This document shows, piece after piece, positions 549 through 54,945 of a DNA stretch of 64,000 nt. The stretch lies in assembly GCA_010093745.1 (NCBI GenBank), contig MU005957.1, positions 496,001 to 560,000 on the forward strand, read 5' to 3'. The notes under the pieces were generated by a model. The model made no database searches. It saw nothing but the letters and a program-made list of their open reading frames with translations, and was not told the origin of the DNA. The position numbers and the translations under genes are program-made. The stretch is from Piedraia hortae CBS 480.64 (Eukaryota). Position 1 is the stretch's first letter; the number at the start of each line of letters is the position of its first letter.

Positions 549-2969
549 ATGCGTCTTCCTTCTTTTATTGGCATTTTGGCCTTGGCCGGGGCCACCATTG
601 CTGCTGACACTCCCCTTTGTCCGACCTTTAATGGGAAAACTTATACCGACTCCAATGGGCAACAGTATAATGTCAAGTGCGGCGTACAGAACAGTGGAAG
701 GGTACTGGATACCACTTCAGCTACCACTACCCTTGGCCAGTGTGCTGCCCTATGCGATGCCCGTACCGGGTGTGTGGCAGTCCTCTTCCATGCCTTTGTG
801 AATACTTGTGATTTCCTTTCGTCGGTCGGGACGAACACTACCAACAGCAACTTCAACTTGGCTGTTAAGAAGGTTTCTCCTGTCTCATCAGACTCTCCGA
901 GCTCAACTGGGTCTCCACAAATTTCTGTAACCTTCACCGAGCGGGTGACGACGGTGTTTGGTGAGAGCGTGAGGCTTGTTGGTTCAGCTACGCAGCTGGG
1001 TAGCTGGGATCCGGCTAATGGACTTGCCATGTCTGCCAATGGCTACACCGACAGCAATCCAATCTGGTCCCTGACGGTCAGCCTACCGGCTGGGCTGACT
1101 TTTCAATACAAATACGTCGTTGTGGGCATTGATGGGACTATTCGGTGGGAAGCAGACCCTAATAGGAGCTTCGTTGTGCCCTTTGCAACCGGTCAATCAT
1201 CAGCAACTTCAACAGCCAACACTTGGCAATCCGTCAGTTCTAGTTCCACCACGTCTTCCCTTACCCTTTCCACCCTAGTTACAAACACAATCAAGGCTAG
1301 CACAACAACATCGGTGGCTTCCACAGCCACATGCACTCATTCTGCCTCACGGAGAGATTGTTGGAGCAAGGGTTTCGATATCAACACAGATTTCGACTCG
1401 AACTGGCCAAAGACGGGTAGGACGGTCTCATACCAGTGGACAATCACCAACACCACTTTGAGCCCTGACGGGATTCAGCGCCCGGCGTTCTTGATCAATA
1501 ACCAGTACCCTGGGCCTAGAATCGAGGCCAACTGGGGCGACACGATCCAGGTTACGGTTAAAAACTCTTTGACAAACAACGGCACGTCGATCCATTGGCA
1601 CGGCCTTCGACAGTATCACAATAACGGCCAGGATGGAGTTCCTGGGGTGACCGAGTGTCCGCTGGCACCTGGCCAGACCAAGACCTACACCTTTGTTGCT
1701 ACGCAGTATGGCACTTCGTGGTACCACTCTCACTTCTCTTGTCAGTACGGAGACGGGGTTCTTGGGCCCATTGTCATTCATGGTCCAGCCACATCCAACT
1801 ACGATATCGACTTGGGCCCGTTACCGCTTACGGATTGGTACAGGCCTACGGTCAATGCATTGGCGGCGAGGGCGGAGCATGCAGATGCGCCGGCCCCGGT
1901 TGCAGACAATGGACTCATCAACGGCACAAATACAAGCCCATCGGGTGGCAAGCGGGCTGTGTCGCGGCTGACCACGGGCAAGCGGCATAGAGTGCGGCTG
2001 CTGAACACGGCTGTGGATAATCACTTTACCGTGTCCCTTGACGGTCATCAAATGGAAGTCATTGCTTCTGATTTCGTGCCAATCAAGCCGTTCAACACGA
2101 CCAGCTTGTTTCTGGGCATTGGACAGCGATACGATGTGATCATCACGGCCGACCAGACCCCGGGTGCTTACTGGTTCCGCGCAGAGATGCCATCATCTGG
2201 AGAGTGTGGAAACAATTTTTCAGGCGATAACATTCGGTCCATCTTTGCCTACCCTGGGTTCGAGACTGCTACCCCGAGCTCGCAACGGCAAGCTTTCTCG
2301 GCCCGGTGCACTGATGAGACAAACCTGATCCCGCATTGGAACTCCTTTGTGCCACGTGGTAAGCAAGGGACTTTCACGGAATTCACAACGGCACAGCTGC
2401 AGCAAAAAGACAATGACGGCAGCGTGAGCATATACTGGCAAATCAACGGTTCGCATTTGATGGTGGACTGGAATGTCCCGACAGTGCAGCACGTGCGAGC
2501 GGGCGACACAAATTTCGGAAAGACTGCGAATCTCGTCAATCTTCCCGACGCTGGTGTGTGGACGTATTGGGTGATTCAGGAAATTGCCGGAAACCCATAT
2601 GAGCTCTTCTTGCCTCATCCAATCCATCTGCACGGCCATGACTTTTATGTCCTAGGGGCTGGTAACACTGCATGGACAGCCGACTCTGCTGCATCCCTAA
2701 ATTACGATAATCCACCCCGGCGCGACGTTGCTATGCTCAATAGCGGTGGGTGGTTGGCCATTGCCTTCCCAACCGATAATCCGGGGGCGTGGGTGATGCA
2801 CTGCCACATTGCTTGGCATGCCGATGAGGGACTTTCTGTGCAGTTTCTTGAATCACCCTCATCGATGCTGTCTACAAGTCCGCTCCCAAGTGACTATGAC
2901 CAGCAGTGCAATGCGTGGAAGAGTTACTATTCGAATTCGTTTTACAAGCAGAGGGATTCTGGGATTTAG
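549..2969 (+). CDS. Secreted laccase-type multicopper oxidase (AA1) with N-terminal PAN/Apple-like and CBM20 starch-binding modules
   Basis: Signal peptide, then a Cys-patterned PAN-like domain, CBM20 (VTTVFGESVRLVGSATQLGSWDP...FQYKYV...WEADPNR) and a Ser/Thr linker. All four Cu motifs are present (HWHG, WYHSH, HPIHLHGH, HCHIAWH), with a C-terminal DSGI plug. Intronless. Confidence 0.93.
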   Translation: MRLPSFIGILALAGATIAADTPLCPTFNGKTYTDSNGQQYNVKCGVQNSGRVLDTTSATTTLGQCAALCDARTGCVAVLFHAFVNTCDFLSSVGTNTTNSNFNLAVKKVSPVSSDSPSSTGSPQISVTFTERVTTVFGESVRLVGSATQLGSWDPANGLAMSANGYTDSNPIWSLTVSLPAGLTFQYKYVVVGIDGTIRWEADPNRSFVVPFATGQSSATSTANTWQSVSSSSTTSSLTLSTLVTNTIKASTTTSVASTATCTHSASRRDCWSKGFDINTDFDSNWPKTGRTVSYQWTITNTTLSPDGIQRPAFLINNQYPGPRIEANWGDTIQVTVKNSLTNNGTSIHWHGLRQYHNNGQDGVPGVTECPLAPGQTKTYTFVATQYGTSWYHSHFSCQYGDGVLGPIVIHGPATSNYDIDLGPLPLTDWYRPTVNALAARAEHADAPAPVADNGLINGTNTSPSGGKRAVSRLTTGKRHRVRLLNTAVDNHFTVSLDGHQMEVIASDFVPIKPFNTTSLFLGIGQRYDVIITADQTPGAYWFRAEMPSSGECGNNFSGDNIRSIFAYPGFETATPSSQRQAFSARCTDETNLIPHWNSFVPRGKQGTFTEFTTAQLQQKDNDGSVSIYWQINGSHLMVDWNVPTVQHVRAGDTNFGKTANLVNLPDAGVWTYWVIQEIAGNPYELFLPHPIHLHGHDFYVLGAGNTAWTADSAASLNYDNPPRRDVAMLNSGGWLAIAFPTDNPGAWVMHCHIAWHADEGLSVQFLESPSSMLSTSPLPSDYDQQCNAWKSYYSNSFYKQRDSGI

Positions 2970-3178
2970 GCATTTGTGTTTTTGCATGTTGGGCCGAGAG
3001 CCGCTCTAGATTTCTTCAGTAAATATTTAGCATTATTCAAGGGTTGTCGACCGCCAAGACATAGTGGGGAAGAAAGTTCTATATGTACAGCCCGGACTAG
3101 GCTGTCGCCCTTCTTAAAACTTTGCACTGTGAATCTGCCTTTCCTGGACAACACCCTCCTCCTCAATCACAGCCATAC

Positions 3179-12977: not shown

Positions 12978-14381
12978 TTAGGTGCTGTCGCCAACGAGCG
13001 AGACGACAGGGTTGAAGTTTTGATAAGCGCAGTCACTGCTAATAGCATGGGAGCTGTTGCCAAAGTGGATGGTCTGGCCATTTCGGATAATGGAAACCTG
13101 AGGGGTTACACCGCCGCCGAGTGATGAAGGGAAGGGGACCATGTTCATAACGGGACCCATTCCGTCGGCGTGGAAGTTCCAGTATTGGTTGCTGCCAACA
13201 GACATTGACACGGTGGAAGGTTCCTTGACCAGGGCCCAGGCAAAGACAGCATCCTGCGGATACTGAGTGTTGCGGATCTGCTGGGACGAGCCACCAATGC
13301 AGACGGCAGACTTGGGGTGCACGCGGTGCCAGAAAATGACCTGGTCGTTGAAAATCGGCGGCGGAGAGCCGGTTTTGAGCCAGGTGAGGTAGTACTTGGT
13401 CATGATGCGCCACGGGGAGTGGTCCTGTCCCCAGACATAGGCGCCCATCTCACCCAACTGAATGTAGTCCTTCTTCGACGTGTCGTATTGATCGGGCAGA
13501 TCGCGTAGGTAGTGGGACTCGCAAAAGTCGTTCCAGGTAAGGATCTCAATCAAATCGGGCTGGAATGCATTGTTTCCGACAAGTGATTGAAAGCGAGTGG
13601 GGTAGAGGGTATCGCTGTAGGCCACCCATGAATCGAGCGGATTACCGTTGTTGAGATCCTTGTACTGCCAGGGAGACACGGCCATGATATAGGGCCCAGA
13701 TCGATGGTTGCTCTGAATAGCATTCTTGAATGCCTGGTCAGGCGTGGTGGAAATATTCTGGCCCGTGTTCAACGGCCAAGCCTGCCAGTTAAGATAGCCA
13801 TCAATAGACTTGTAATCCGACATGAGCTTGCTGGCGGAGCCGGTCGGATCATCCTGGGCAGCCAATGAGTACTTGGTGAGGGCGGGCGCAAGCGTGATGT
13901 ACATGTTAGAATAGGCCATGTTGCGCTTCAGGCCAGCGAAGAAGTCATCGCCGTACTGGTCGACCTGATCGCCGCCATAGGTAGAGACAAGAATGTTGTT
14001 GTTCCACTTGTAAGCAGCCTTGCTGCTGGCCGACTTGGTGAGAACGTCCTGCATGTATGTCTGATTCCAGTAGATGTCACATTCCGAGTACGACATGTCA
14101 AAGGAATGCATTAGGGAGAAGCCAACTTGTTCCGCGGCTTCAAAGGCGTCGTCAATGCGGTCCGCCGTCCATGCGAGACCCCATTGGCAGTTGGGGGGAA
14201 TCCAATTGAGGGCGAAGCCATCTATGCCGATGCTCTTGGCGTCGTTCATATCCTGTTTCCACTGGTTGACATCGTAGGCGTAGGCATTCTGCACCATGAA
14301 GTGCGCGAACACATCGGTAGCTACGGCTACCTGAGCCATGGCCACGGCCAAGACGGCCGCAGCGGAAGAGATTACGCGCAT
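12978..14381 (-). CDS. Secreted GH71 alpha-1,3-glucanase (mutanase-like)
   Basis: Signal peptide MRVISS..., then VFAHFMV, GIDGFALN, SFDM, IEILTWNDFCESHY and FWHRVHPK. No CBM24 tail is visible. Confidence 0.92.
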   Translation of the reverse strand: MRVISSAAAVLAVAMAQVAVATDVFAHFMVQNAYAYDVNQWKQDMNDAKSIGIDGFALNWIPPNCQWGLAWTADRIDDAFEAAEQVGFSLMHSFDMSYSECDIYWNQTYMQDVLTKSASSKAAYKWNNNILVSTYGGDQVDQYGDDFFAGLKRNMAYSNMYITLAPALTKYSLAAQDDPTGSASKLMSDYKSIDGYLNWQAWPLNTGQNISTTPDQAFKNAIQSNHRSGPYIMAVSPWQYKDLNNGNPLDSWVAYSDTLYPTRFQSLVGNNAFQPDLIEILTWNDFCESHYLRDLPDQYDTSKKDYIQLGEMGAYVWGQDHSPWRIMTKYYLTWLKTGSPPPIFNDQVIFWHRVHPKSAVCIGGSSQQIRNTQYPQDAVFAWALVKEPSTVSMSVGSNQYWNFHADGMGPVMNMVPFPSSLGGGVTPQVSIIRNGQTIHFGNSSHAISSDCAYQNFNPVVSLVGDST

Positions 14382-20699: not shown

Positions 20700-22594
20700 A
20701 TGATGGTGGATACGCGATCCAAGTCAAGCGACGTAGGCGACAAGGCGAAGCCAAAGCACAAGGCGGAGAAAGAAACCAAGAAAGGAACAAAGGCCGACAC
20801 GGGCGAAAGGATGAGGAACCCCACCGAGGCCGCCGCCGCCACCGCGCGATCCTCGGATTCAGATATGACGCCTGAAAAACCCGTGCGCGAGCGTCTCAAG
20901 AAGGCAACCATTGACACGCCGGCCAGGGACAAGACGCTGACGCCCGACGCCGCGGGGACCGGCAAGGAGAACCAGAGGGTCCAGCGTCAACACACGCGCA
21001 AACGGTCGCGCGAGATCTCGTCAGCTGTGGACAAATGGGAACTCAAGAAAACCAAGCCAGACACAGAGGCCGACGCGGTGGCAGGGACCCTCATGGAAGC
21101 CCCAGACGCCTCTCCTACGGTCAAGCGGAGTAGAATTCATAGCTCAACCGCGGAAGGCGGGGCAGAAGATGACGGAGAGGATAACAGTGGTGACTATGGG
21201 GAGAAAAAGACGGAGGATGATGAAGGCGACAAGGCAGAGGACGGCGGAGAGGCCGTTGGAAAGAAGTCTAACGAGACGGAAGAAGCTAAGCAAACTGCAC
21301 AGCCCAAGGATGCTGCAGAAACAGAGGCTGAGGTAAAGTCTAAAGACACTTCAAAGTCAAAGGACGCGGGCGGCTCGGAAAACGTTCTGGAACCAAAGGA
21401 CGCGAAGCCCGAAGAAGCCGCAGAGCCAAAAGAGGCAGAGTCCAAGGAGCCCAAAGAGCCCAAAGACGCTGATCCTAAAGGCGTAGAGCCAAAGGACGCA
21501 GAGCCAAAGGACTCGAAGCCGAAAGACGCCGCAGAGGCAAAGGACGCAGACTCAGAAGAGTCCACAAAGCCCAAAGACACGAAGTCCAATGACACCAAGC
21601 TCAGAGAGACCAAGCCCGAAGCCAAACAGACGTCAGCCGATGCCTTCGCGCGGTCTGGTTTCAGTGCCCTGGCCAAGAGCAGCACGTCCGGCTTCGGCGC
21701 GTTAGGCCAACAAGCGTCTTCTATCCCCGCCTTTGGCAGCGCAGCAGCTGCTAACACCACCCCAAGCACTGGCAGCAGCAACGGCATCTTTGGCGGGGCT
21801 CTAGGGGCTAAGAGCTCATTCGGTGGCGCTTTGGGGGCCAAAAGCTCATTCGGTAACGCATCTTTCGGCGCCTCTTTCGGCGCCTCACCCTTCGCCGCCG
21901 TCGGAGGAAGCAACACCACACCACTCACATCGTTCGCATCACCATCCGCCGCCTCCCCTTGGAAATCCACATCGACCGTCAAACCACTAGGCGCAACTGC
22001 ATCCCCAGCTGCAGGAAAGCCCGATAACGAGAAAGCCGACGACAATGAAGACAACGAAACAGACAGGAAAGGCACCGATAGCGGTGACAAGCAAGATGCA
22101 CGTTTCAACCCTCTCAACGCGACGGAGACGGGTGAGGAGGGCGAGGAAACCATCTTCACCTGTCGAGCGAAGCTCTACGCTTTCGTAAAACCCGATACTG
22201 AGCAGCAGAAGCAGGAAAGCACAAACGGAGGAAAGGCCGAGTGGCGCGAGCGTGGAGTCGGGACTTTGAGGCTTAATATGACTTATCCACCGGAAGAGGA
22301 AGACAAAGTCGACGACGCAAAAGAAGAGGGCGAGAAAGACCCAACCGAGGAAAAGCAATCCGAAACCGAGGAGAAACCCTCCCAAGAGAACCAACCTTCA
22401 AAGACAACAGCCCGCTTCGTCCTCCGCGCCGACGGCTCGCACAGACTAGTCCTCAACACTCCCATCAAGAAGGAACTGATGTACGGCACACCCAGCGGAG
22501 GAAAGCCGCAGGGCGGCTCATTCTTCTTAATGGGCACGCTGGATGCCAGTACGGGGAAACTAGAAATGTTGCAGTTAAAGGTAAGTGGTCCATC

Positions 22595-22651
<57 letters not shown>

Positions 22652-22745
22652 GGAGAGAGGGATGCTAACGCAAGTGATATAGATGAAGCCGGATTTCGCG
22701 GAACAGTTGTACAACCTCGTTAGACAGGTGCAGACGGAATTGTGA
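20700..22745 (+). CDS. RanBP1-domain protein (Yrb2/RanBP3/Nup2-like; intron 22581-22682)
   Basis: FG-like repeats, then ETGEEGEETIFTCRAKLYAF, WRERGVGTLRLN and ARFVLRADGSHRLVLN. GTAAGT...GCTAAC...TAG intron; last exon MKPDFAEQLYNLVRQVQTEL*. Confidence 0.85.
21300..21620 (+). repeat. Degenerate coding EPKDA-type repeats in the RanBP1-domain gene
   Basis: Repeated gagcc(a/c)aa(a/g)ga(c/g) units encoding EPKDA/EPKEA. Confidence 0.8.
22598..22651. repeat. Compound (TG)20(AG)n microsatellite inside the intron
   Basis: Read directly. It accounts for this intron being 102 nt versus about 45-50 nt for most others. Confidence 0.95.
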
Positions 22746-22949
22746 TTTCTCGAGAGGGGGGATAGCGGGTGGGATGGGGAGTGTATGAGTAGTTGTGTTC
22801 GATTCCACCGGGGGATTAGATGGGAAGTGGGTAGAGATGGTTGTTTATGCTATTCACTTTGTGGTGTTTTATCTCTGTGTCAGGGTCGTTACTTGATTTT
22901 TCGGTTGTTGATGTGGATGATTCGCTGCCGGGATAGGTGGATATCGTTG

Positions 22950-24098
22950 GGCTCATAAACCTGATGGATCGCAGCCGCGACGAACAAAGCAATCGCGGGC
23001 TCATAACTATTTCCAAACGAGCGCCAAGAGCCGGCAATTCCTGGCTCATAACTGTCGTAGCTAACGCCAAGGAGCCAGCCATCACAGGCTCATAACTATG
23101 ATGGACCAGAACGGAGACGGACAGAACAATCCCCGGCTCATAACTGTTAGGAACCGCTCCCAGAAGCCAGGAATACTGGGCTCATAACCTGTTGGATAGC
23201 CACAGGCAAGCCCACCACCTGGGCTCATAACTGTCGAGCAGCAGCCGAGACGGACAGAATGCCGGGCTCATAACCTGTTAGAACACAGGCCCAACGAACA
23301 GAGCACAGACCGGGCTCGTAACTGTGATACCACACCCGAAACGGACAGAGCAATCCTGGGCTCATAACTAAGACGTGAAAGCCAAAGCCAGGGCACAGCC
23401 CTACCGGGCTCATAACCTGTTGGACCAGAACCAAGACAGACAGAGCAATGCCGGGCTCATAACTATCTCGGACCAGCGCCAGAAGTCAGGAATCCCGGGC
23501 TCATAACCTGTTGTACCGCGGCCAAGACGGACAGAGCAATCCGGGCTCATAACTTATTATAGACCGGCACCCAGGAACCAGAAATTCCAGGCTCATAATC
23601 TGTTAGAGGCCAACGCCAAAGAGCCATCTATGAGGGGGCTCATAACTAGGAACGGCAACCGAGGCTGGCAGAGCATAGGCCAGGCTCATAACCTGTTAGG
23701 AACCGACGCTAGAAGCCAGCCATAGAGGGCTCATAACTGATGGATCACAGTCAAGACGGATAGTGAGCTCCGGACTCATAACTGAGACGTCGAAGCCAAG
23801 GCCCGGAGCCAGCAATCCCGGGCTCATAACCTGTGAGCAGCAGCCGAGACAGGCAGAGCAATTACGGGCTCATAACCAGATAGGGCCGGCATCTAGAAAC
23901 CAGAAATACCAGGCTCATAACTGTTAGCGGTCGGCGCCAGAAGCCTGGAATGCCGGGATAATAACCTATTAGAGCACATGCCAAACGAACAGAGCATACG
24001 GGGGGCTCTTAACTGTGTCCCCACGCCAAAGACCCAGCAATCCCGGGCTCATAACTTTTGGACCGCAGCCGGGACATGAAAAATGCCGGACTCATAAC
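22950..24098. repeat. Regularly interspaced array: 26 copies of a GGCTCATAAC core with 42-48 bp periodicity and divergent spacers
   Basis: Cores start at 22950, 22998, 23043, 23087, 23135, 23179, 23222, 23265, 23313, 23359, 23407, 23454, 23498, 23544, 23590, 23637, 23683, 23728, 23773, 23821, 23867, 23912, 23956, 24004, 24046 and 24089. All are in the same orientation. Confidence 0.97.
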
Positions 24099-24604
24099 GT
24101 CTTGTAAGTCCCCCCTCCCTAGTATAACTGATAAGGCATATCAGCACCCGAAAAGACGATGGATGTGCTCGTGACTGTGTCCAAGGAGCTGCGCGGAATG
24201 ATGTCGTCCAGTGTAGTCCAGTCCGCCGTTAAGTTTCCGCTTCCAGCCAGCAGCGTGAGCGATTTATAGGGCTGCCCGCCTTGGTTGGGCTGAATGTGGA
24301 ACAGTTTTGTCCGCCAGGAGGTGTGGTGGTTCTCCAAGTGGGGTGCCAAGCAATTCATCCCTTGACGGTGACAGCTCAAATGCCGCCTTACTTTATCTGG
24401 CCAAGCGCCATCAACTGAACGATGGGCAACAATTTCTGTAATCGAGCTGTGTAAGAGGCCAGCCTAGATCGATTCCTCAATGGTAACCCACTCCCGATTT
24501 ATGATAAACACCTCAACGTGTTTCCATAGAAATTCAGGTTCTTAATCTCAACACCTTCAACCGCAACAAAATATCATACATAGTCATCTTACAACAAACA
24601 GTCC

Positions 24605-24968
24605 CTAAGACGAAGAGTTCCTCACACCCCTAACCTTCTCCAGCAACTGAACCCTCGGTTCGTCCTTCTCATGTTCGATACCATGCTACCTGTCATTAGC
24701 CATCAACCAGTAACCAGGAGAAAAAAAAACCCTACCTTGTTAAGAAACTCTTTCAGCTCCGTATTCGTCCATTCCTCAAGCAGACGATCATCTTTCTTCT
24801 GGCTAGGAAAAACCTCGCCGCCCCAGATAGACCAAGCTGCGGCGGCTGAGACTGCAAGTGCGAAGCCGAAGAAGATATTCTACATCCTGCGTTAGCAGCC
24901 CAGCAAATAACAATAAGATTTCCACTTGCTTGAGACCGAACGGCCCGATCTAGCGGCGTTGGAGCCAT
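24605..24968 (-). CDS. Small conserved fungal single-pass membrane protein (MPTPLDRA... family), 3 exons, missed by the ORF track
   Basis: Exons 24968-24930, 24879-24736 and 24685-24605 splice in frame to MAPTPLDRAVRSQ/NIFFGFALAVSAAAAWSIWGGEVFP...EEWTNTELKEFLNK/HGIEHEKDEPRVQLLEKVRGVRNSSS*. Intron 1 is GC-AG. Confidence 0.8.
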
Positions 24969-25002
24969 GGCCTTGCGCTTGCTGATGAACGGAGTTGTTG
25001 AC

Positions 25003-25014
25003 TTAGGGTTAGGG
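25003..25014. promoter_or_regulatory. TTAGGGTTAGGG telobox-like motif in a divergent promoter
   Basis: Lies in the ~93 bp gap between two divergent start codons (24968 and 25062). Confidence 0.45.
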
Positions 25015-25061
25015 ATTATGACACCTCTCACCAGCCATCCGTTGCCTCAGTCTTGCTGCCT

Positions 25062-26684
25062 ATGCCTCTCCTCGGCGCGCGTCTCTCAAAGAACTGCTGG
25101 AGAAATCTTCGACATGGAATCAGATTCCAAAGCTCATCCGCGATCCATGCGCCGTTGAGCGTCCCACCACCACATCGCCAGCTTTACCAAACTTTGTTAA
25201 GCCTCGAGGAAGACGCCGCCGGTTTCGTGGATATATCCCGCCTTCAGCTCGCATTACGCAGTTTGGAGAGTTCGAATCCGGTTATTCGCGTTGCGTTGTT
25301 GGGTCTGGGTCCTCGTGGGGGTCGAGCTGTGAAGCAACTTGCTAAAGTCTTGTTGAGTGATGAGTTGGTGGAGGAGCAGAGATGGGAGAGGGAACTCGAG
25401 GGAGAGCATAGTGCTTTAATTCGGTATGGAAGTGAGGAGGAAGTCGTCCCATCGAGTCCGTTGGCACAGACGGTTCTGGCTCCCTCGGCTTTATTGAAGA
25501 AGCATAGGTTGGAATTGTTGGCAATGCATTGGTCTGTTGCGATGACGGAGCAGGAGGATGCGATGTTAGGGCCGACAATGTCTGTGCCGGGCTCGACCGT
25601 AAGGTATCCGGTCCATAAGGCGCTGATTGTGGCTGATGGGGTGGATGGAACGGTTGAGTCGGGACGGATCACGGTGAAGAGTCCTCTGATTAAGGCGGTT
25701 TGCAATCTGCCTCTTCGTCAGGATGCTGGAGAAGGGGTTGTGGATGTGGATTTGGCGAATGATGCTATCAGCCTCCTTCGAGCTGATCGATCTAAGGGGT
25801 CAGAGTACAGTCACAAGTGGCAAGCCAGCCAGGTCAGCAAACTAATTCCTTGGTTATCTCCGAAAGTTTCGGAGACTGGCCTATCTGAACCTGTTCAGCA
25901 ATTGATCGATTCTTTGCTCAACCAGGCATCATCTGCCATCGCACGTGCAGAGACTGGGCGGAATGCTCTATCAGCCAATATGCCTTCAACAAAACGCCGA
26001 GAACTCGAGGGCCTAGTATCTGGGTGGACTCAGACAGCCCATAGCGAGCTCCAATTACACCTAGCTCAAGCAGCGGAATTACCTTCCTGGCGTCAAACAG
26101 TATGGTGGAAACTGATTTGGCGCGTCGACGACGTGGCTGCAGGAGCAGGCGACTTGCTCAATAGCTGGCTAGTACGAGCCGAATCCTCGCTAGCCTATCT
26201 CTGTGGACGAATCGACGAAACCATAATATCAACCCAAAAATCATCAGAGCCTCCCAATGAACACTGGCCACACGCCATCGAATTCAACCGCAACGACATC
26301 CTACACACAAAAATCCCAGAGCTGCAACGCACAGCCCAGAGTCTATTCGCCCGGGCTCTGGCCACGACGGCGGGTAGTTCTGCGCTCGGCGCCGTGTGTG
26401 CTCTCGCTTCACCTGCTGACATGGCACTCGCACTAGCTTTTCCTGCTCTTGGCATTGTCGTCAGTCTTAGCAGGCTTCAGGTCAAATGGACCGCCGCACG
26501 CGCAAGATACGAGGCAGCTCTCGCGCAACGTGGGCGGGAGGTTATAGTTTATGTTGAGGATCAGTTGCGGAGAGTGGTGAGTGTGCGGAATGTATCTCAG
26601 AGGAGTGAGTTTGATGGGCCAAAGGCTTCGATCAAAGTCTGTAGAGATGCGTTGCGGGAGGCCAAGGGGAGTGAAACAATATAA
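25062..26684 (+). CDS. Mmc1-like putative mitochondrial protein
   Basis: Presequence-like N-terminus; VDISRLQLALRSLE..IRVALLGL, YPVHKALIV, WWKLIWRVDDV; two C-terminal hydrophobic helices. Confidence 0.7.
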   Translation: MPLLGARLSKNCWRNLRHGIRFQSSSAIHAPLSVPPPHRQLYQTLLSLEEDAAGFVDISRLQLALRSLESSNPVIRVALLGLGPRGGRAVKQLAKVLLSDELVEEQRWERELEGEHSALIRYGSEEEVVPSSPLAQTVLAPSALLKKHRLELLAMHWSVAMTEQEDAMLGPTMSVPGSTVRYPVHKALIVADGVDGTVESGRITVKSPLIKAVCNLPLRQDAGEGVVDVDLANDAISLLRADRSKGSEYSHKWQASQVSKLIPWLSPKVSETGLSEPVQQLIDSLLNQASSAIARAETGRNALSANMPSTKRRELEGLVSGWTQTAHSELQLHLAQAAELPSWRQTVWWKLIWRVDDVAAGAGDLLNSWLVRAESSLAYLCGRIDETIISTQKSSEPPNEHWPHAIEFNRNDILHTKIPELQRTAQSLFARALATTAGSSALGAVCALASPADMALALAFPALGIVVSLSRLQVKWTAARARYEAALAQRGREVIVYVEDQLRRVVSVRNVSQRSEFDGPKASIKVCRDALREAKGSETI

Positions 26685-34855: not shown

Positions 34856-35467
34856 CTAGCGTCTAGCAGAGGCTGGTGTCTGATTGGACAGAGTCGAAGT
34901 CGGCGTAGGTGACGGAGAATTCTCTCCCACATCGTCATCTTCAGGTAGACGAACTGAGAGAAGAAACCTCAGGTCTTCCCGACGACGCCTCTCATAGTCT
35001 TCATACCACCACGGTAGCTTTGACGACGATCTCGGATCGTTAGCGTTGTCGTTACGAGGACGTAACTGAGCTGGATTGCTGGCGTTGCCGTTACGACTTA
35101 GCTGGGCGGGATTATTTGCGTTGCTGTTACGACAGCTTAGCTGAGTTGAATTGCTGGCGTTGCCGTTGAGAGGACCCAGCTGGATCGGATTGCTGGTGTT
35201 GACGTTACGAGGACCTAGCTGAGCTGGATTACTAGCGTTGCCGCGATGAAGACTTAGCTGAGTTGGATTGCTAGCCTGCCGGCTATGCTGGCCGAACCGA
35301 GCACATTCCACGCGAAAAATGGCCTGCTCCTCCTGCATCAACTCGTACTGTTCGTCTAACATGGCGGATAAGTGTATGATGGCTCTGATGTGCGGCATCT
35401 GGGGTCCGGTATTCATCGCGGCTTGGTTTCTGAGCGATGCACCATTCGAGACATGTTGATTGGCCAT
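34856..35467 (-). CDS. Hypothetical protein with ~13-aa NASNPAQL repeats; divergent partner of a Clr2-like gene
   Basis: Open 203-aa frame from MANQHVS. A paralogous pseudogene at 10632 supports a coding origin. Confidence 0.65.
   Translation of the reverse strand: MANQHVSNGASLRNQAAMNTGPQMPHIRAIIHLSAMLDEQYELMQEEQAIFRVECARFGQHSRQASNPTQLSLHRGNASNPAQLGPRNVNTSNPIQLGPLNGNASNSTQLSCRNSNANNPAQLSRNGNASNPAQLRPRNDNANDPRSSSKLPWWYEDYERRRREDLRFLLSVRLPEDDDVGENSPSPTPTSTLSNQTPASARR
35040..35285 (-). repeat. ~39-bp coding minisatellite (6-7 units)
   Basis: QASNPTQLSLHRG / NASNPAQLGPRNV / NTSNPIQLGPLNG / NASNSTQLSCRNS / NANNPAQLSRNG / NASNPAQLRPRND. Confidence 0.9.
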
Positions 35468-50547: not shown

Positions 50548-50895
50548 GATCCGCGAGGCGGAGCGTTTGGGGGATGCGGTGCGGTGGAGATGGGGAAAAT
50601 ATTTTTATCCACGACATTTAGGAGCCAGAAATATGTTTGAGATCACGCTTGTCCCGTTTGGGAACGGCGACTTCGGTCGCGTCAACGCGTGCAGCTGGAG
50701 AATTTCTGCGCCAACTGCGCCGGGTGAAACGTCTTTGCTCGAGACAAAGGTCCTAAAGGAGGAGGAGCTGCTCTCTGTGACCCTTGTTGTCCCGTCACCG
50801 TCACATCACCGCCCCAAGCTCACCGTCCTTTGCGCTCCTCGTCCAAGAACAACACCTTACAAGACCATTGCACAAGCTCGCAACAACCGCAGAAA

Positions 50896-53800
50896 ATGTC
50901 AGCTGCGGTGGTGGCCACGCCACAGCGGCCGCTCCCCGGTGGCTTCATCTCCACCCCGGCGCCGCAGCCGTCGACCATCTTCGCAGCCCAGGCGGCGTCG
51001 CTGCGCCAGGCGCATGCGCCCAAGGCCGATGCCGCCGTGGGAGACGCGTCGTCGAGCACACTATCGTCAGTAGAACGAGCAGCGAACACAATCGGCGATG
51101 CGCTGGCGGCTGAAGCGCGGTTCCCCGACCTCGAGAGCTACGTCGGCCAAGGCGTCAGCGGCGACTACGAACTGCCAAGCAGCGCAGCTTGGGAGCCGTT
51201 TCAGAAGCTCAGGCTGTACGATATCCCGCCGGCCATGATTCAGCAGTCTAACCAGAGCATGAACGGGCTGCAGACGGGCATCTTTGCGCCGCTGTCACAC
51301 TGCTGGGCCATCATGGACAACTTCCTGTACCTCTGGGACTACACACAGGCAGAGCCAGAGCTGGTGGGCTACGAGGAGCTGCAGCATCAAATCACTGGCG
51401 TGCAGCTGGTGAGGCCGAAGCCCGGCGTCTTCAGGCCGGACATTACCCATCTCATCGTTGTGGCCACGCAGAGCCAGATGCATCTCTTAGCCGTGGCCCA
51501 TTCAGTTACGGCAGCCGGCGCTCACTCTGTAGCCTTGTTCAATACGCGAATGCACATCCCCACGGGCGGCCTCAACGTAACCACCATTGAGGCATCGGCA
51601 AAAAGCCATCGCATTTTCTTCTTAGACGGGCACGGCGAAGACATTTACGAGTTCCACTACCAGAGCGAGGAGGGCTGGTTTCGTGGGAAATGTTCCCGCA
51701 TATGCCACACACGTAGCCAATACGACTACTTTCCAGCGCCGGTCAAGATGCTCAGCAGCATCGTGAACAAATCGGCGGTGCAAAAGTTCTTCATCCAACT
51801 CGTGATTGACGACTCCAGAGACCTCATGTACACTCTCAGCAACACCAACGAGATCAAGGTCTGGACGCTGCGGGACCAGGTCAGGCTAGCCCTCGCCCGC
51901 CCATTGACCAACCTCCTGCAGACCACCGGCCACTTCTCCGCCCGTACCGACCTGCTCTACAGTAATAATGTACGCATTGTTAGTATCAATGCCATTCCTG
52001 CCTCCGAGGCCGGCAAGTTGAGCCTTCTGGCCACAACAAACACGGGCTGTCGGCTGTATCTGTCGGCCACTCGCGGTTACGGCTTCCCAGCGGATGGCCA
52101 GAATGGTCCTAACAGTATGCAAATTCTGCACATTCGCTTTCCGCCCAGAGACGGCCGGGTGATCGAGCAGCCAACGCCGTCCACTCAGCTGGTGCCGGCT
52201 CAGAACGCCAACGTAGACACCAATTCCCGCGTCCTGGACCAGACAAAGAGTGCGTGTAGATATCCCCCAGGCTACTTCTTCGCCTTCCAGGAAGATCTGA
52301 CTGCGAGCACCATCTCTGACCAGGTCTTTTGCACCGCACCGGATTTTGCCAGGCTCAAGAATCCCCAGGATGCCGGGCCCCTAAACACACGTTTTTCTGA
52401 ATTTGGCCAGTGGATAAGGCTGCCAGGAGAATTGTCTGGTATTGCACCGACGACGCCCGACTTTGTATCCACATCTTGCCATGAACTGGCGGGTCAATTC
52501 GACCAGGCCAGTCCCGAGATGGTTATCATGACCAGCTCCGGCGTGCAAACGCTGCGGCGTAGGCGGTTAGTGGATGTCTTTGCCACTATGCTCCGGGGCT
52601 CGTCCAACGACGATGAAGGCCGCGAGGGGGATATCAAGCGCTTCGTGCGTATGTACGGCCGCGGCGAAACGGCAGCCACCGCCATTGCTGTAGCTTGTGG
52701 CCAAGGTCTTGATGCTCCCGATGATAATCTAGGCCGTGTGAGCAACATTACCGACCCCGATGTTCTGGAGGTTGCACGGCGAGTATTCATCGAGCAAGGC
52801 GGTAAGCCAGAGTACAATGCCAACGCCGTCATCGATCGTACTGCAGACCCGCTGGATAGCGTTCGACTTAGCCCAAGACACGAAGGCCTTTCCCTCTACA
52901 TCTGCCGTCTGGTAAGGTCCATCTGGTCATCTACCGTGATCCAACAGAAGACGATGCCGGGAAAGCCGCTTCAGATGTACTCGACCATTCCAGCAGAGAA
53001 GCTGCGCAAGGTCCAACGAGACCTCATTGCGTTGTCAGACTTTTTGGATCGGAACAGATCGCTCATCGAAGGCCTTGCCGGTCCCCAGGCTCTGCACCGG
53101 GCAACAAACCGCCAGGAGGAGATTGCACTCCAAGGCGAACACCGAGCAATGAGCAGTTTGGTGCAGCTAATTGGCAGCATCATCGAAGGCATCGCATTTG
53201 TGCTGGTCCTGTTTGACGAGCGAGTGGAGGATATCGTCCTGGCCTTGCCTGCAGAGAGCCAGAAGAAAACCCTGGAGCTGCAGTATCACGAGCTTTTCTC
53301 CATGCCCACTGGTCGGGAACTGGCTAAGGAGCTGGTTAAGGCCATCGTCAACCGCAACATTGCCAACGGCAGCAACGTCGACACCGTAGCTGATGCTCTG
53401 CGGAGGCGTTGTGGCTCGTTCTGCAGTGCCGATGACGTGGTGATATTTAAAGCTCAGGAACAAGTCAAACGAGCATCAGAGGCCGGATCGGGCTCGGAAA
53501 CAGGTCGTGTCCTGCTGAACGAGAGCCAGAGGTTATTCACAAAGGTGGCCGGAAGTCTCCACGATGAAGTTCTTCACTGGACTGTTGGGCAATACGTCGA
53601 CATGGCGTTTTATGCCGGAGCCATTCAGCTCTGTCTAGCCGTGGCCCATGAGCGGGATCGGGCACAGCGGGCTGCCAGTTGGATACGAGACGGTATGCCA
53701 GATCGGGACGAGCGTCAGACGGTGTACGAAGATCGCAAACGCTGCTACGATTTGATTTTTTCTATCATCCAGGCCCTTGACACGGCCACATTGGGCGACG

Positions 53801-54945
53801 ACACTGCCATGGCCTCCCGTCGCCGTAACGAAGCCTACGATGTCATCAACGCATCCGACGATATTACATTTCAGTCTAATCTCTACGACTGGTACATTGC
53901 CACCGGAAAGGCCGACCGACTTCTCGACATGAACAGCCGTTACGTCGTTGACTATCTTGGTCGTCGTGCAGAGGAGGACAGAGTCCAGGCCGACCTTCTC
54001 TGGCGGTACTATGTCCACCACAACGAGCATCTCAAAGCAGCCGCCACTCAGCTAGAACTCGCTCGGAGTCACTTTCCGCTTGACCTCGAAGAGCGAATGG
54101 TCTACCTCAGCCGCGCACACACCAACGCTTCCACGCGCACCACCATCCTCACAGACTCCCGCCAAGATAAACAGCAACTCCTCCGACAAATCTCCGACCT
54201 CATCGAAGTTGCCACCATCCAGGGCGAGCTGGTACAAAAATTCAAATCTGACCCGCGTCTGCAAGGTCCGCGACGCGATGAAGTCCTCGATGCACTGTCC
54301 ATGCAGGGCATCCGACCCGTCGACGAGCTATTCAACAATTTCTCTGACCAGGCAGGCTACCACGACATCAACCTACAAATCTTCCAGGTAGCCGACCACC
54401 GTAACATGGCCGAGATCCGATCCGCATGGGAGCAGCTCATTACGTCTGTTCACGAGAATGCCGTAGCCCAAAAAGTCGTGCCCTGGGAACTCGTCGGTGA
54501 CAAAGTCCGCGAGATGGGCTATAAGCTACAACGATCCGAGAACACGTTCCCCATCTCTATCCTCTTACCCCTCCTTGAGCGCTACGCAGTAACCATGGCC
54601 CAAAACAACACCAACGACGCACCGCCGCAATACTGGGCCATTGAAGTCTTTCTCGAACTAGACACCCCACCAGAAACTCTGATGCCGGTGTTGGAACAAA
54701 TTTATTACGGAAACGAACACCCCTTCACGGGCTCCAAGCGTCGGATCCTTGCCAGCCATCTTGTTTTCTTAATTGGGAAATGGGTCGATCTTGCTGACCG
54801 TGCGGGTGAGAGATTTCCCTGTGGAAGTGAGGATAATGCCGTTGCAGCAAAGGATTGTCTGGATAGTTTGCTGCGTGGGAGAGATTTAGCGGATAGGGAT
54901 AGGGTCCTCGCTGAGGGCGTTAGGAGACTTGTTGAGAGGTATTGA
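50896..54945 (+). CDS. NUP170: Inner-ring nucleoporin Nup170/Nup157/Nup155
   Basis: DNFLYLWDY, PKPGVF, YQSEEGWF..C, NVDTVADALRRRCGSFCS, LDLEERMVYLSRA. Intronless, about 1350 aa. Confidence 0.93.
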   Translation: MSAAVVATPQRPLPGGFISTPAPQPSTIFAAQAASLRQAHAPKADAAVGDASSSTLSSVERAANTIGDALAAEARFPDLESYVGQGVSGDYELPSSAAWEPFQKLRLYDIPPAMIQQSNQSMNGLQTGIFAPLSHCWAIMDNFLYLWDYTQAEPELVGYEELQHQITGVQLVRPKPGVFRPDITHLIVVATQSQMHLLAVAHSVTAAGAHSVALFNTRMHIPTGGLNVTTIEASAKSHRIFFLDGHGEDIYEFHYQSEEGWFRGKCSRICHTRSQYDYFPAPVKMLSSIVNKSAVQKFFIQLVIDDSRDLMYTLSNTNEIKVWTLRDQVRLALARPLTNLLQTTGHFSARTDLLYSNNVRIVSINAIPASEAGKLSLLATTNTGCRLYLSATRGYGFPADGQNGPNSMQILHIRFPPRDGRVIEQPTPSTQLVPAQNANVDTNSRVLDQTKSACRYPPGYFFAFQEDLTASTISDQVFCTAPDFARLKNPQDAGPLNTRFSEFGQWIRLPGELSGIAPTTPDFVSTSCHELAGQFDQASPEMVIMTSSGVQTLRRRRLVDVFATMLRGSSNDDEGREGDIKRFVRMYGRGETAATAIAVACGQGLDAPDDNLGRVSNITDPDVLEVARRVFIEQGGKPEYNANAVIDRTADPLDSVRLSPRHEGLSLYICRLVRSIWSSTVIQQKTMPGKPLQMYSTIPAEKLRKVQRDLIALSDFLDRNRSLIEGLAGPQALHRATNRQEEIALQGEHRAMSSLVQLIGSIIEGIAFVLVLFDERVEDIVLALPAESQKKTLELQYHELFSMPTGRELAKELVKAIVNRNIANGSNVDTVADALRRRCGSFCSADDVVIFKAQEQVKRASEAGSGSETGRVLLNESQRLFTKVAGSLHDEVLHWTVGQYVDMAFYAGAIQLCLAVAHERDRAQRAASWIRDGMPDRDERQTVYEDRKRCYDLIFSIIQALDTATLGDDTAMASRRRNEAYDVINASDDITFQSNLYDWYIATGKADRLLDMNSRYVVDYLGRRAEEDRVQADLLWRYYVHHNEHLKAAATQLELARSHFPLDLEERMVYLSRAHTNASTRTTILTDSRQDKQQLLRQISDLIEVATIQGELVQKFKSDPRLQGPRRDEVLDALSMQGIRPVDELFNNFSDQAGYHDINLQIFQVADHRNMAEIRSAWEQLITSVHENAVAQKVVPWELVGDKVREMGYKLQRSENTFPISILLPLLERYAVTMAQNNTNDAPPQYWAIEVFLELDTPPETLMPVLEQIYYGNEHPFTGSKRRILASHLVFLIGKWVDLADRAGERFPCGSEDNAVAAKDCLDSLLRGRDLADRDRVLAEGVRRLVERY

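Follow-up and report, generated by a model that had tools for sequence, protein, structure and literature searches.

A tandem array of 26 units with a protected 10-nt core, present in RNA, next to a Ran-binding-domain gene in a fungal genome

Genes around the array and its presence in RNA

The window, that is the whole 64-kb stretch of DNA that was analysed (64,000 nucleotides), comes from an intron-bearing, Dothideomycete-like fungus. Of its 36 open reading frames of at least 180 aa, 24 were scanned for domains. These 24 long frames are ordinary fungal housekeeping genes, and reverse transcriptase, integrase, gag, transposase and Cas domains are absent from them. The other 12 overlap the 24, or are the frames of the two genes flanking the array (scanned separately with Pfam) and frames running across them. 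No LTR pair appeared in the repeat analysis of the window. A 39/78-bp tandem repeat at 35032-35275 (~6 copies, 70-71% matches), inside a 231-aa minus-strand frame, is coding: it gives a 13-residue Asn/Ser/Pro-rich protein repeat and is unrelated to the array.

The features at the locus are the following:

20700..22745, + strand: gene whose protein has FG repeats and, at its C-terminus, a Ran-binding domain (exon 1 to 22578, exon 2 22681-22745; start approximate)
22579..22680, + strand: intron holding a (TG)20(GA)n microsatellite (GT..AG; RNA-contig joint 22578/22681)
22746..24315, + strand (presumed): stretch after the stop codon, continuous with the spliced coding end in a contig of run X2 and read as a ~1.57 kb 3'UTR
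22749..22762 (left arm) and 24109-24122 (right arm): weak inverted repeat of 14 nt, 86% complementary, bracketing the array
22950..24098, + strand: the array, 26 tandem units 42-48 bp long, each beginning with GGCTCATAAC (match scan, alignment and repeat families)
24099..24200, + strand: right edge, where one or two units have decayed; what is left of their cores lies near 24125 and, with 3 mismatches, at 24166-24175 (seen by eye and as repeat family D11)
24587..24968, - strand: small convergent gene of roughly 90 codons, introns 24686-24735 and 24880-24929 (RNA-contig joints and translation; start approximate)

The domain of the upstream gene was recognised by Pfam (PF00638, E 9.5e-07), with the Ran-binding domains of Nup358 and RanBP1 among the solved-structure matches, and the gene product is lysine/glutamate-rich with FG-type repeats. 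By this architecture, the gene is probably Nup2/Nup50-like. Within it, 15-bp tandem repeats at 21415-21621 encode a Lys/Asp/Glu/Pro-rich pentapeptide run. Its 102-nt intron holds a (TG)20 and then a (GA)n run at 22598-22662, and the contigs of the DNA run X1 break exactly there. It is one of two nuclear-pore genes within the 64 kb, the other being a Nup133_N/Nucleoporin_C gene at 50728-54942.

On the other side of the array, the small convergent gene on the minus strand has a second intron (24880-24929) with GC..AG instead of GT..AG ends, according to the RNA-contig joint. Beyond this gene lies an Mmc1-family gene on the + strand (Pfam), and the nearest named homologues of its protein are from Dothideomycetes, at 36-45% identity. 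The coding sequence upstream stops at 22745 and that of the convergent minus-strand gene near 24606, which leaves the ~1.86 kb gap that had been read from the sequence before. The array occupies 62% of it.

Two public runs from different studies contain all sampled words of the array. Run X1 is DNA and identical to the window over 22000-25500. The contigs of run X2 have joints that remove three introns, 22579-22680 (GT..AG), 24686-24735 (CT..AC) and 24880-24929 (CT..GC), and X1 is without these joints. Because the three introns are missing from its contigs, X2 is RNA-derived. A 2051-nt contig of X2 connects 22164-22578 with 22681-24315 (0 differences, 0 gaps), crosses all 26 units and extends 217 nt past the last core. 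Since it joins the spliced end of the gene to the whole array, we place the array in a 3'UTR of ~1.57 kb. This is the simplest reading of the contig, and we infer the + strand for it, X2 contigs carrying no strand, end or level information. Continuity of the contig means that every 31-mer of the array is in the library; it does not imply that the array shares one molecule with the splice junction. X2 gives no cover over 24340-24573, which is uninformative either way.

Anatomy of the array and protection of its core

The core GGCTCATAAC was matched 26 times on the + strand between 22950 and 24098, always in the same orientation: 19 matches are exact, 6 have one mismatch and 1 (at 23956) has two. 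Core starts are 42-48 bp apart, with a mean of 45.56 and no helical phasing. These counts agree with those of the sequence-only reading. It had also noted that no two spacers are identical and that no long ORF crosses the array, and the same was found here: every unit differs from every other, and no stop-free frame spans the whole array, the longest overlapping ones having 121, 86 and 75 aa. Outside the array, the exact core is absent from both strands of the 64-kb window (~0.12 matches expected by chance, by simple arithmetic), and only three matches with one mismatch were found, at 13372 on the - strand and at 52197 and 56372 on the + strand.

All 25 complete units can be aligned over their full length. 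Two or three subtypes can be told apart, in part alternating along the array, and blocks of 63-102 nt recur with 76-81% identity 7, 9, 15 and 18 units apart (families D8, D10, D13 and D14). From the full-length alignment and the recurring blocks, it follows that the array is a minisatellite built by old block duplications, with head-to-tail units in the usual 10-100 bp range that go back to one unit. To judge from the alignment, what had been called spacers goes back to a single ancestral unit whose copies have degenerated. The earlier description of the spacers as divergent was right about their divergence, but not if it is taken to mean that they are unrelated. Tandem Repeats Finder called only the best-kept parts, 23404-23553 (period 44) and 23296-23554 (period 91), with 74-75% matches; it missed the rest, whose units are too diverged.

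Around the core there is a graded motif of ~22 nt, AAT-N-CCG-GGCTCATAAC-Y-TGTT. On the left, the AAT positions are kept in 18, 21 and 18 of the 26 units and the CCG positions in 19, 19 and 20. The position after the core is a pyrimidine (C in 10/26 and T in 15/26), followed by the T-rich TGTT. Conservation had been thought to be confined to the 10-mer; it is indeed strongest there, but the motif is wider. On the + strand, the sequence outside the cores is poor in T (119 of 889 bases), which makes its composition strongly strand-asymmetric.

In the alignment of 25 units, which is anchored on the core and flatters its conservation, departures from the consensus amount to 7/250 cells in the core and 323/834 in the other well-filled columns. 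These rates, 2.8% vs 38.7%, mean that the core is kept ~14 times better. Averaged over all unit pairs, identity is 0.945 within the core and 0.463 in the rest. Each of the ten core positions has its consensus base in 24-26 of the 26 units, so they are about equally fixed. Between nearest-neighbour units, the non-core parts are 55-78% identical and the cores agree at 8-10 of ten positions.

It is very unlikely, in our view, that this is an ordinary neutral minisatellite whose core stands out through a mutational cold spot, microhomology-driven turnover or the anchoring of the alignment. The anchoring speaks for such an origin, and so do the edge units, which are decayed as in ordinary satellites. 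The same contrast between core and non-core is, however, seen in ungapped duplicated blocks. In neutral simulations (25 units of 46 sites, uniform mutation, 150 runs per model) under whole-unit conversion, 15-bp tract conversion and pure decay, the divergence of the best contiguous 10-column window relative to the rest had a mean of 0.81-0.85 and a minimum of 0.61, compared with an observed ratio of 0.072. Turnover is not what refreshes the cores, because no pair of units is recent (best non-core identity 78%), and no mechanism is known that would produce the same 10-bp cold spot 26 times. The proposal that the core is kept beyond what tandem duplication with gene conversion would leave is thus upheld, both position by position and in the three simulated models. 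Site-specific constraint on the core, or some site-specific mutational protection of it, is needed.

Compared with known minisatellites, the array has the same head-to-tail units (42-48 bp), internal block duplications, decayed edge units and non-coding character. Ordinary minisatellites diverge evenly, whereas this one has a single protected stretch of 10 nt and no recent unit pair. Repeat-induced point mutation (RIP) was considered and dropped, given an intact CpA in the core and core variants without C-to-T bias.

At the right edge, the family D11 copy at 24167-24182 is 88% identical to unit 24. The inverted repeat that brackets the array has one G-rich and one C-rich arm, and its left arm begins 4 nt past the stop codon of the Ran-binding-domain gene. 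Its significance is doubtful: it could be due to chance or form a long-range RNA stem. No target duplication flanking the inverted repeat or the array was seen by eye. Transposase subterminal repeats had been among the proposed candidates. We rejected a DNA transposon with such repeats, as there is only this 14-nt, 86% inverted repeat, one motif orientation, no target duplication and no transposase.

Likeness to the initiator tRNA and occurrence of the core elsewhere

Probes for yeast initiator tRNA-Met are printed in PMC3112208 and in a primer table of PMC11230868, and the reverse complement of these printed sequences contains GGGCTCATAACCCTGATG. The core together with the preceding G equals the first 11 nt of GGGCTCATAACCCTGATG, the anticodon arm (11/11), in a tRNA that is yeast's and may not be the host's. 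A G stands directly before the core in 20 of the 26 units, and unit 1 matches the yeast sequence of the probes at 17/18 nt. Beyond the anticodon arm the similarity ends: 566 of 1000 shuffles of the next 23 nt of the tRNA reach the best observed score. As a sequence match, the identity may be a clue to where the unit came from or to the factor that reads it. We take it as a lead on one of these, not as membership.

A tRNA gene or pseudogene was tried and rejected. ARAGORN found 0 tRNA genes in the 64-kb window, Rfam gave nothing at gathering score in the same window, and the 3' part of the tRNA does no better than its shuffles. With Rfam hits up to E 10 over 22600-24500, only three chance lncRNA/scaRNA rows were obtained.

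The minus strand adds a second likeness. There, ACA stands directly, or one base, before GTTATGAGCC in 13 of 25 units. The resulting (ACA)(G)GTTATGAGCC(C) is complementary to the anticodon arm of the initiator tRNA and looks, as a sequence, like an LTR tip followed by a primer-binding site of the Ty5/copia type. In the passages on priming in PMC5371799, Ty5 primes from an initiator tRNA cut within the anticodon loop. Yeast LTR tips TGTTG/CAACA and Ty5 priming from an initiator tRNA half are described in passages of PMC5371799, bioRxiv 10.1101/2025.04.25.647736 and PMC10886601. The last of these also states initiator-tRNA priming for Drosophila copia and lists fungal Copia elements with a tRNA-iMet primer. 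Unlike such a primer-binding site, the array comes in 26 tandem copies, and LTR, gag and pol are absent from its surroundings. The half-tRNA primer-binding site of a retrotransposon was rejected as an identity for the array, with no LTR pair and no reverse transcriptase, integrase or gag in the 24 long ORFs. Among the literature matches listed for tandem repeats and primer-binding sites, nothing was specific. The core 10-mer occurs in 101 papers, and the 20 matches listed among them were, by title, primer lists or works on unrelated subjects.

The array could still be a relic, its unit stemming from the junction of an LTR end and a half-tRNA primer-binding site or from a piece of an initiator tRNA-Met gene and then amplified, so that the core would stand out by origin or re-templating and not by use in the host. 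The anticodon-arm identity, the LTR-tip-like ACA and the published priming of Ty5 speak for it, as does one metagenome locus (L032) whose 23-nt units continue the yeast initiator tRNA sequence at 12/13 nt beyond the core. We consider it improbable all the same. Origin does not explain maintenance, as non-core parts have diverged by 22-45% since the last duplications and the cores are intact; the window gave no LTR, gag-pol, tRNA or Rfam match; and the part of the tRNA 3' of the anticodon arm is no closer to the units than shuffles are.

Metagenomes were scanned for pairs of cores separated by 30-40 nt. The 103 loci obtained group into 74 families, with periods from 10 to 60 bp, and 31 of the families have at least 4 cores. 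The genes that flank the array in the window were at none of these loci. C at position +1 (39/74 families) and T at +2 (40/74) are enriched. One locus (L018) weakly resembles the array, with 72% identity over 103 nt and an E of 5e-04, and its repeat sits within a 213-aa open frame. As for a tRNA match beyond the core, 2 loci score at least 14 vs 6.0 expected from shuffles, so there is no overall enrichment.

Eleven contigs of one metagenome (L012, L015, L022, L032, L037, L042, L043, L050, L061, L063 and L079) belong to a repeat-rich eukaryote with CCCTAAA-type telomere-like runs. They carry many minisatellites with the same 10-nt core, differing in period and spacers. Another locus, L060, has a 43-bp array at 2720-3100 in which the core is mostly GGGCCCATAACC, with a few units having the T variant; we take GGGCCCATAACC to be the anticodon arm as it reads in the initiator tRNAs of animals.

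In viral contigs, the core was found at 14 loci in 5 families, and two control 10-mers of the same composition at 1 and 3 loci. Nine of the viral contigs (L104, L105, L107, L108, L110, L111, L114, L115 and L117) have one identical non-coding stretch in common, in which GGCTCATAAC and GGCTCATAAA units alternate at intervals of 10-12 bp. The repeat is iteron-like and belongs to a single phage family. Overall, there is no clear excess of core arrays over chance, and the scans speak neither for nor against a function of the array. That tandem repeats of the same 10-mer are common in metagenomes, with no clear excess over the controls in viral contigs, is one more point for the neutral origin weighed above.

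The tRNA likeness also allows a functional reading, which we regard as highly improbable. The 3'UTR would be a multivalent mimic of the initiator-tRNA anticodon arm, with 26 selected copies of GGGCUCAUAAC(C). By base pairing, these would occupy the half-tRNA primer-binding site in the RNAs of copia/Ty5-type retrotransposons and block their priming. Alternatively, the array would soak up, and so titrate, a protein that reads the anticodon arm. Under such mimicry the core would be fixed because the imitated tRNA cannot change, and the spacers would be free to drift. In mouse cells, tRNA fragments block retrotransposon priming.

Folding, modes of action and what the array may mean

RNAalifold predicted 0 consensus pairs, both on 24 core-centred units and on 25 core-first units. 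Sixteen folds of 144 nt, 8 per strand, were no better than those of shuffles (z between -2.19 and +0.39 for the + strand, between -1.57 and +0.27 for the - strand). In these predictions, the motif, if it is read at all, would be read as linear sequence.

The likeness to CRISPR that the sequence-only reading had seen did not survive. Like a CRISPR array, this one has a conserved short stretch that alternates regularly with variable stretches of similar length. It differs in the following: only 10 nt are invariant (not 23-55 nt), the positions beside them are conserved in 18-21 of the 26 units, the spacers share a common origin, there is no palindrome or hairpin, no cas gene is among the 24 long ORFs, and the host is an intron-bearing eukaryote. 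We therefore rejected this identity.

A precursor RNA cut at each core into small RNAs of ~45 nt, CRISPR-like or phased, had also been suggested, and it would fit the regular spacing and the presence of the array in RNA. We hold it to be extremely unlikely, as the core has no hairpin or conserved structure and the spacers match nothing else in the window: comparison of the array with the rest gave 14 matches outside the region, all of at most 25 nt and with E of at least 0.74. Moreover, at least some RNA is uncut, because one X2 contig runs unbroken across all 26 units.

We tentatively favour, with less than even confidence, a multivalent row of linear recognition sites under purifying selection, most likely acting on the RNA of the 3'UTR. 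All units descend from one ancestral unit of 45-46 bp and form an old non-coding minisatellite, which would be transcribed within the long 3'UTR of the nucleoporin-like Ran-binding-domain/FG gene. Purifying selection would hold the 10-nt core inside the ~22-nt motif, while the rest has drifted to ~46% pairwise identity. The array would then present unstructured linear sites to one sequence-specific factor and act at the RNA level through a protein or a base-pairing partner. The result would be a change in the stability, localisation or translation of the mRNA of the Ran-binding-domain gene. Action on RNA is probable because the array sits in an mRNA, and we prefer it because the cores have one orientation, the composition is strand-asymmetric, the RNA is contiguous with the spliced gene and no structure was found. 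The edge units with decayed cores, which resemble those of an ordinary satellite, count against this explanation.

The constraint could act on DNA instead of RNA. The same selected array would then hold protein sites between the convergent genes and serve as a barrier or termination zone, an insulator-like platform or a recombination site. Ten core positions that are about equally fixed look like a DNA site of 9-10 bp, the array fills most of the gap between the convergent genes, and neither an RNA structure nor a directly read RNA strand stands in the way. We think this unlikely, though worth keeping in view: 26 sites pointing one way and a strand-asymmetric composition fit a transcript better than a symmetric role on DNA, and the spacing of 42-48 bp lacks helical phasing. 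To our knowledge, the core resembles no known RNA- or DNA-binding motif, including those of known fungal factors; this weighs against DNA sites for a familiar factor and also against the RNA sites that we favour. Among RNA motifs, we know of none for branch points/SF1, PUF proteins, Nrd1/Nab3 or polyadenylation that fits the core. For the role as a kinetochore or origin that had been put forward, nothing speaks.

Other RNAs with repeated sites offer the closest parallels for a row of RNA sites. NORAD with its Pumilio sites, CDR1as/ciRS-7 with its miR-7 seed sites and the Xist A-repeat are transcripts in which many short conserved motifs stand in diverged units and act as a multivalent platform or sponge. 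The array has this layout and is transcribed, its whole length being covered by the contig of the RNA run. Those are animal non-coding RNAs with known partners, whereas the array lies in the 3'UTR of a protein-coding fungal gene and its partner is putative. On the DNA side, the cluster of Su(Hw) sites in gypsy is comparable: about a dozen short conserved sites with variable spacers, from the untranslated region of a retroelement. It differs in acting on DNA in Drosophila, with another motif and as a known part of a retroelement.

The sequence-only reading had proposed to regard the array as an ordinary old minisatellite if the core were no better kept than under simulated duplication and if transcripts, binding and copies in relatives were lacking. 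On two of these four counts the findings go the other way: the core is kept beyond the neutral expectation, and a transcript is present in the RNA library. The protection of the core and its presence in RNA are solid and unusual for a fungus, and they are known from one genome. If relatives turn out to be without the array, it would stay an oddity, a minisatellite whose protected core lacks an explanation.

If the identity with the tRNA arm is no coincidence, it would connect retrotransposon priming, or proteins that recognise tRNAs, with a transcript of the host. If the core works, a comparison of wild-type and mutated core would be a direct handle for fishing out the factor. As a working site, the core would make the array a compact example, provided by nature, of a fungal mRNA tail with 26 sites under selection. 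Multi-site transcripts of this architecture are already familiar from animal non-coding RNAs, and we know of none such in fungi. The gene concerned would be a component of the nuclear pore and the Ran cycle.
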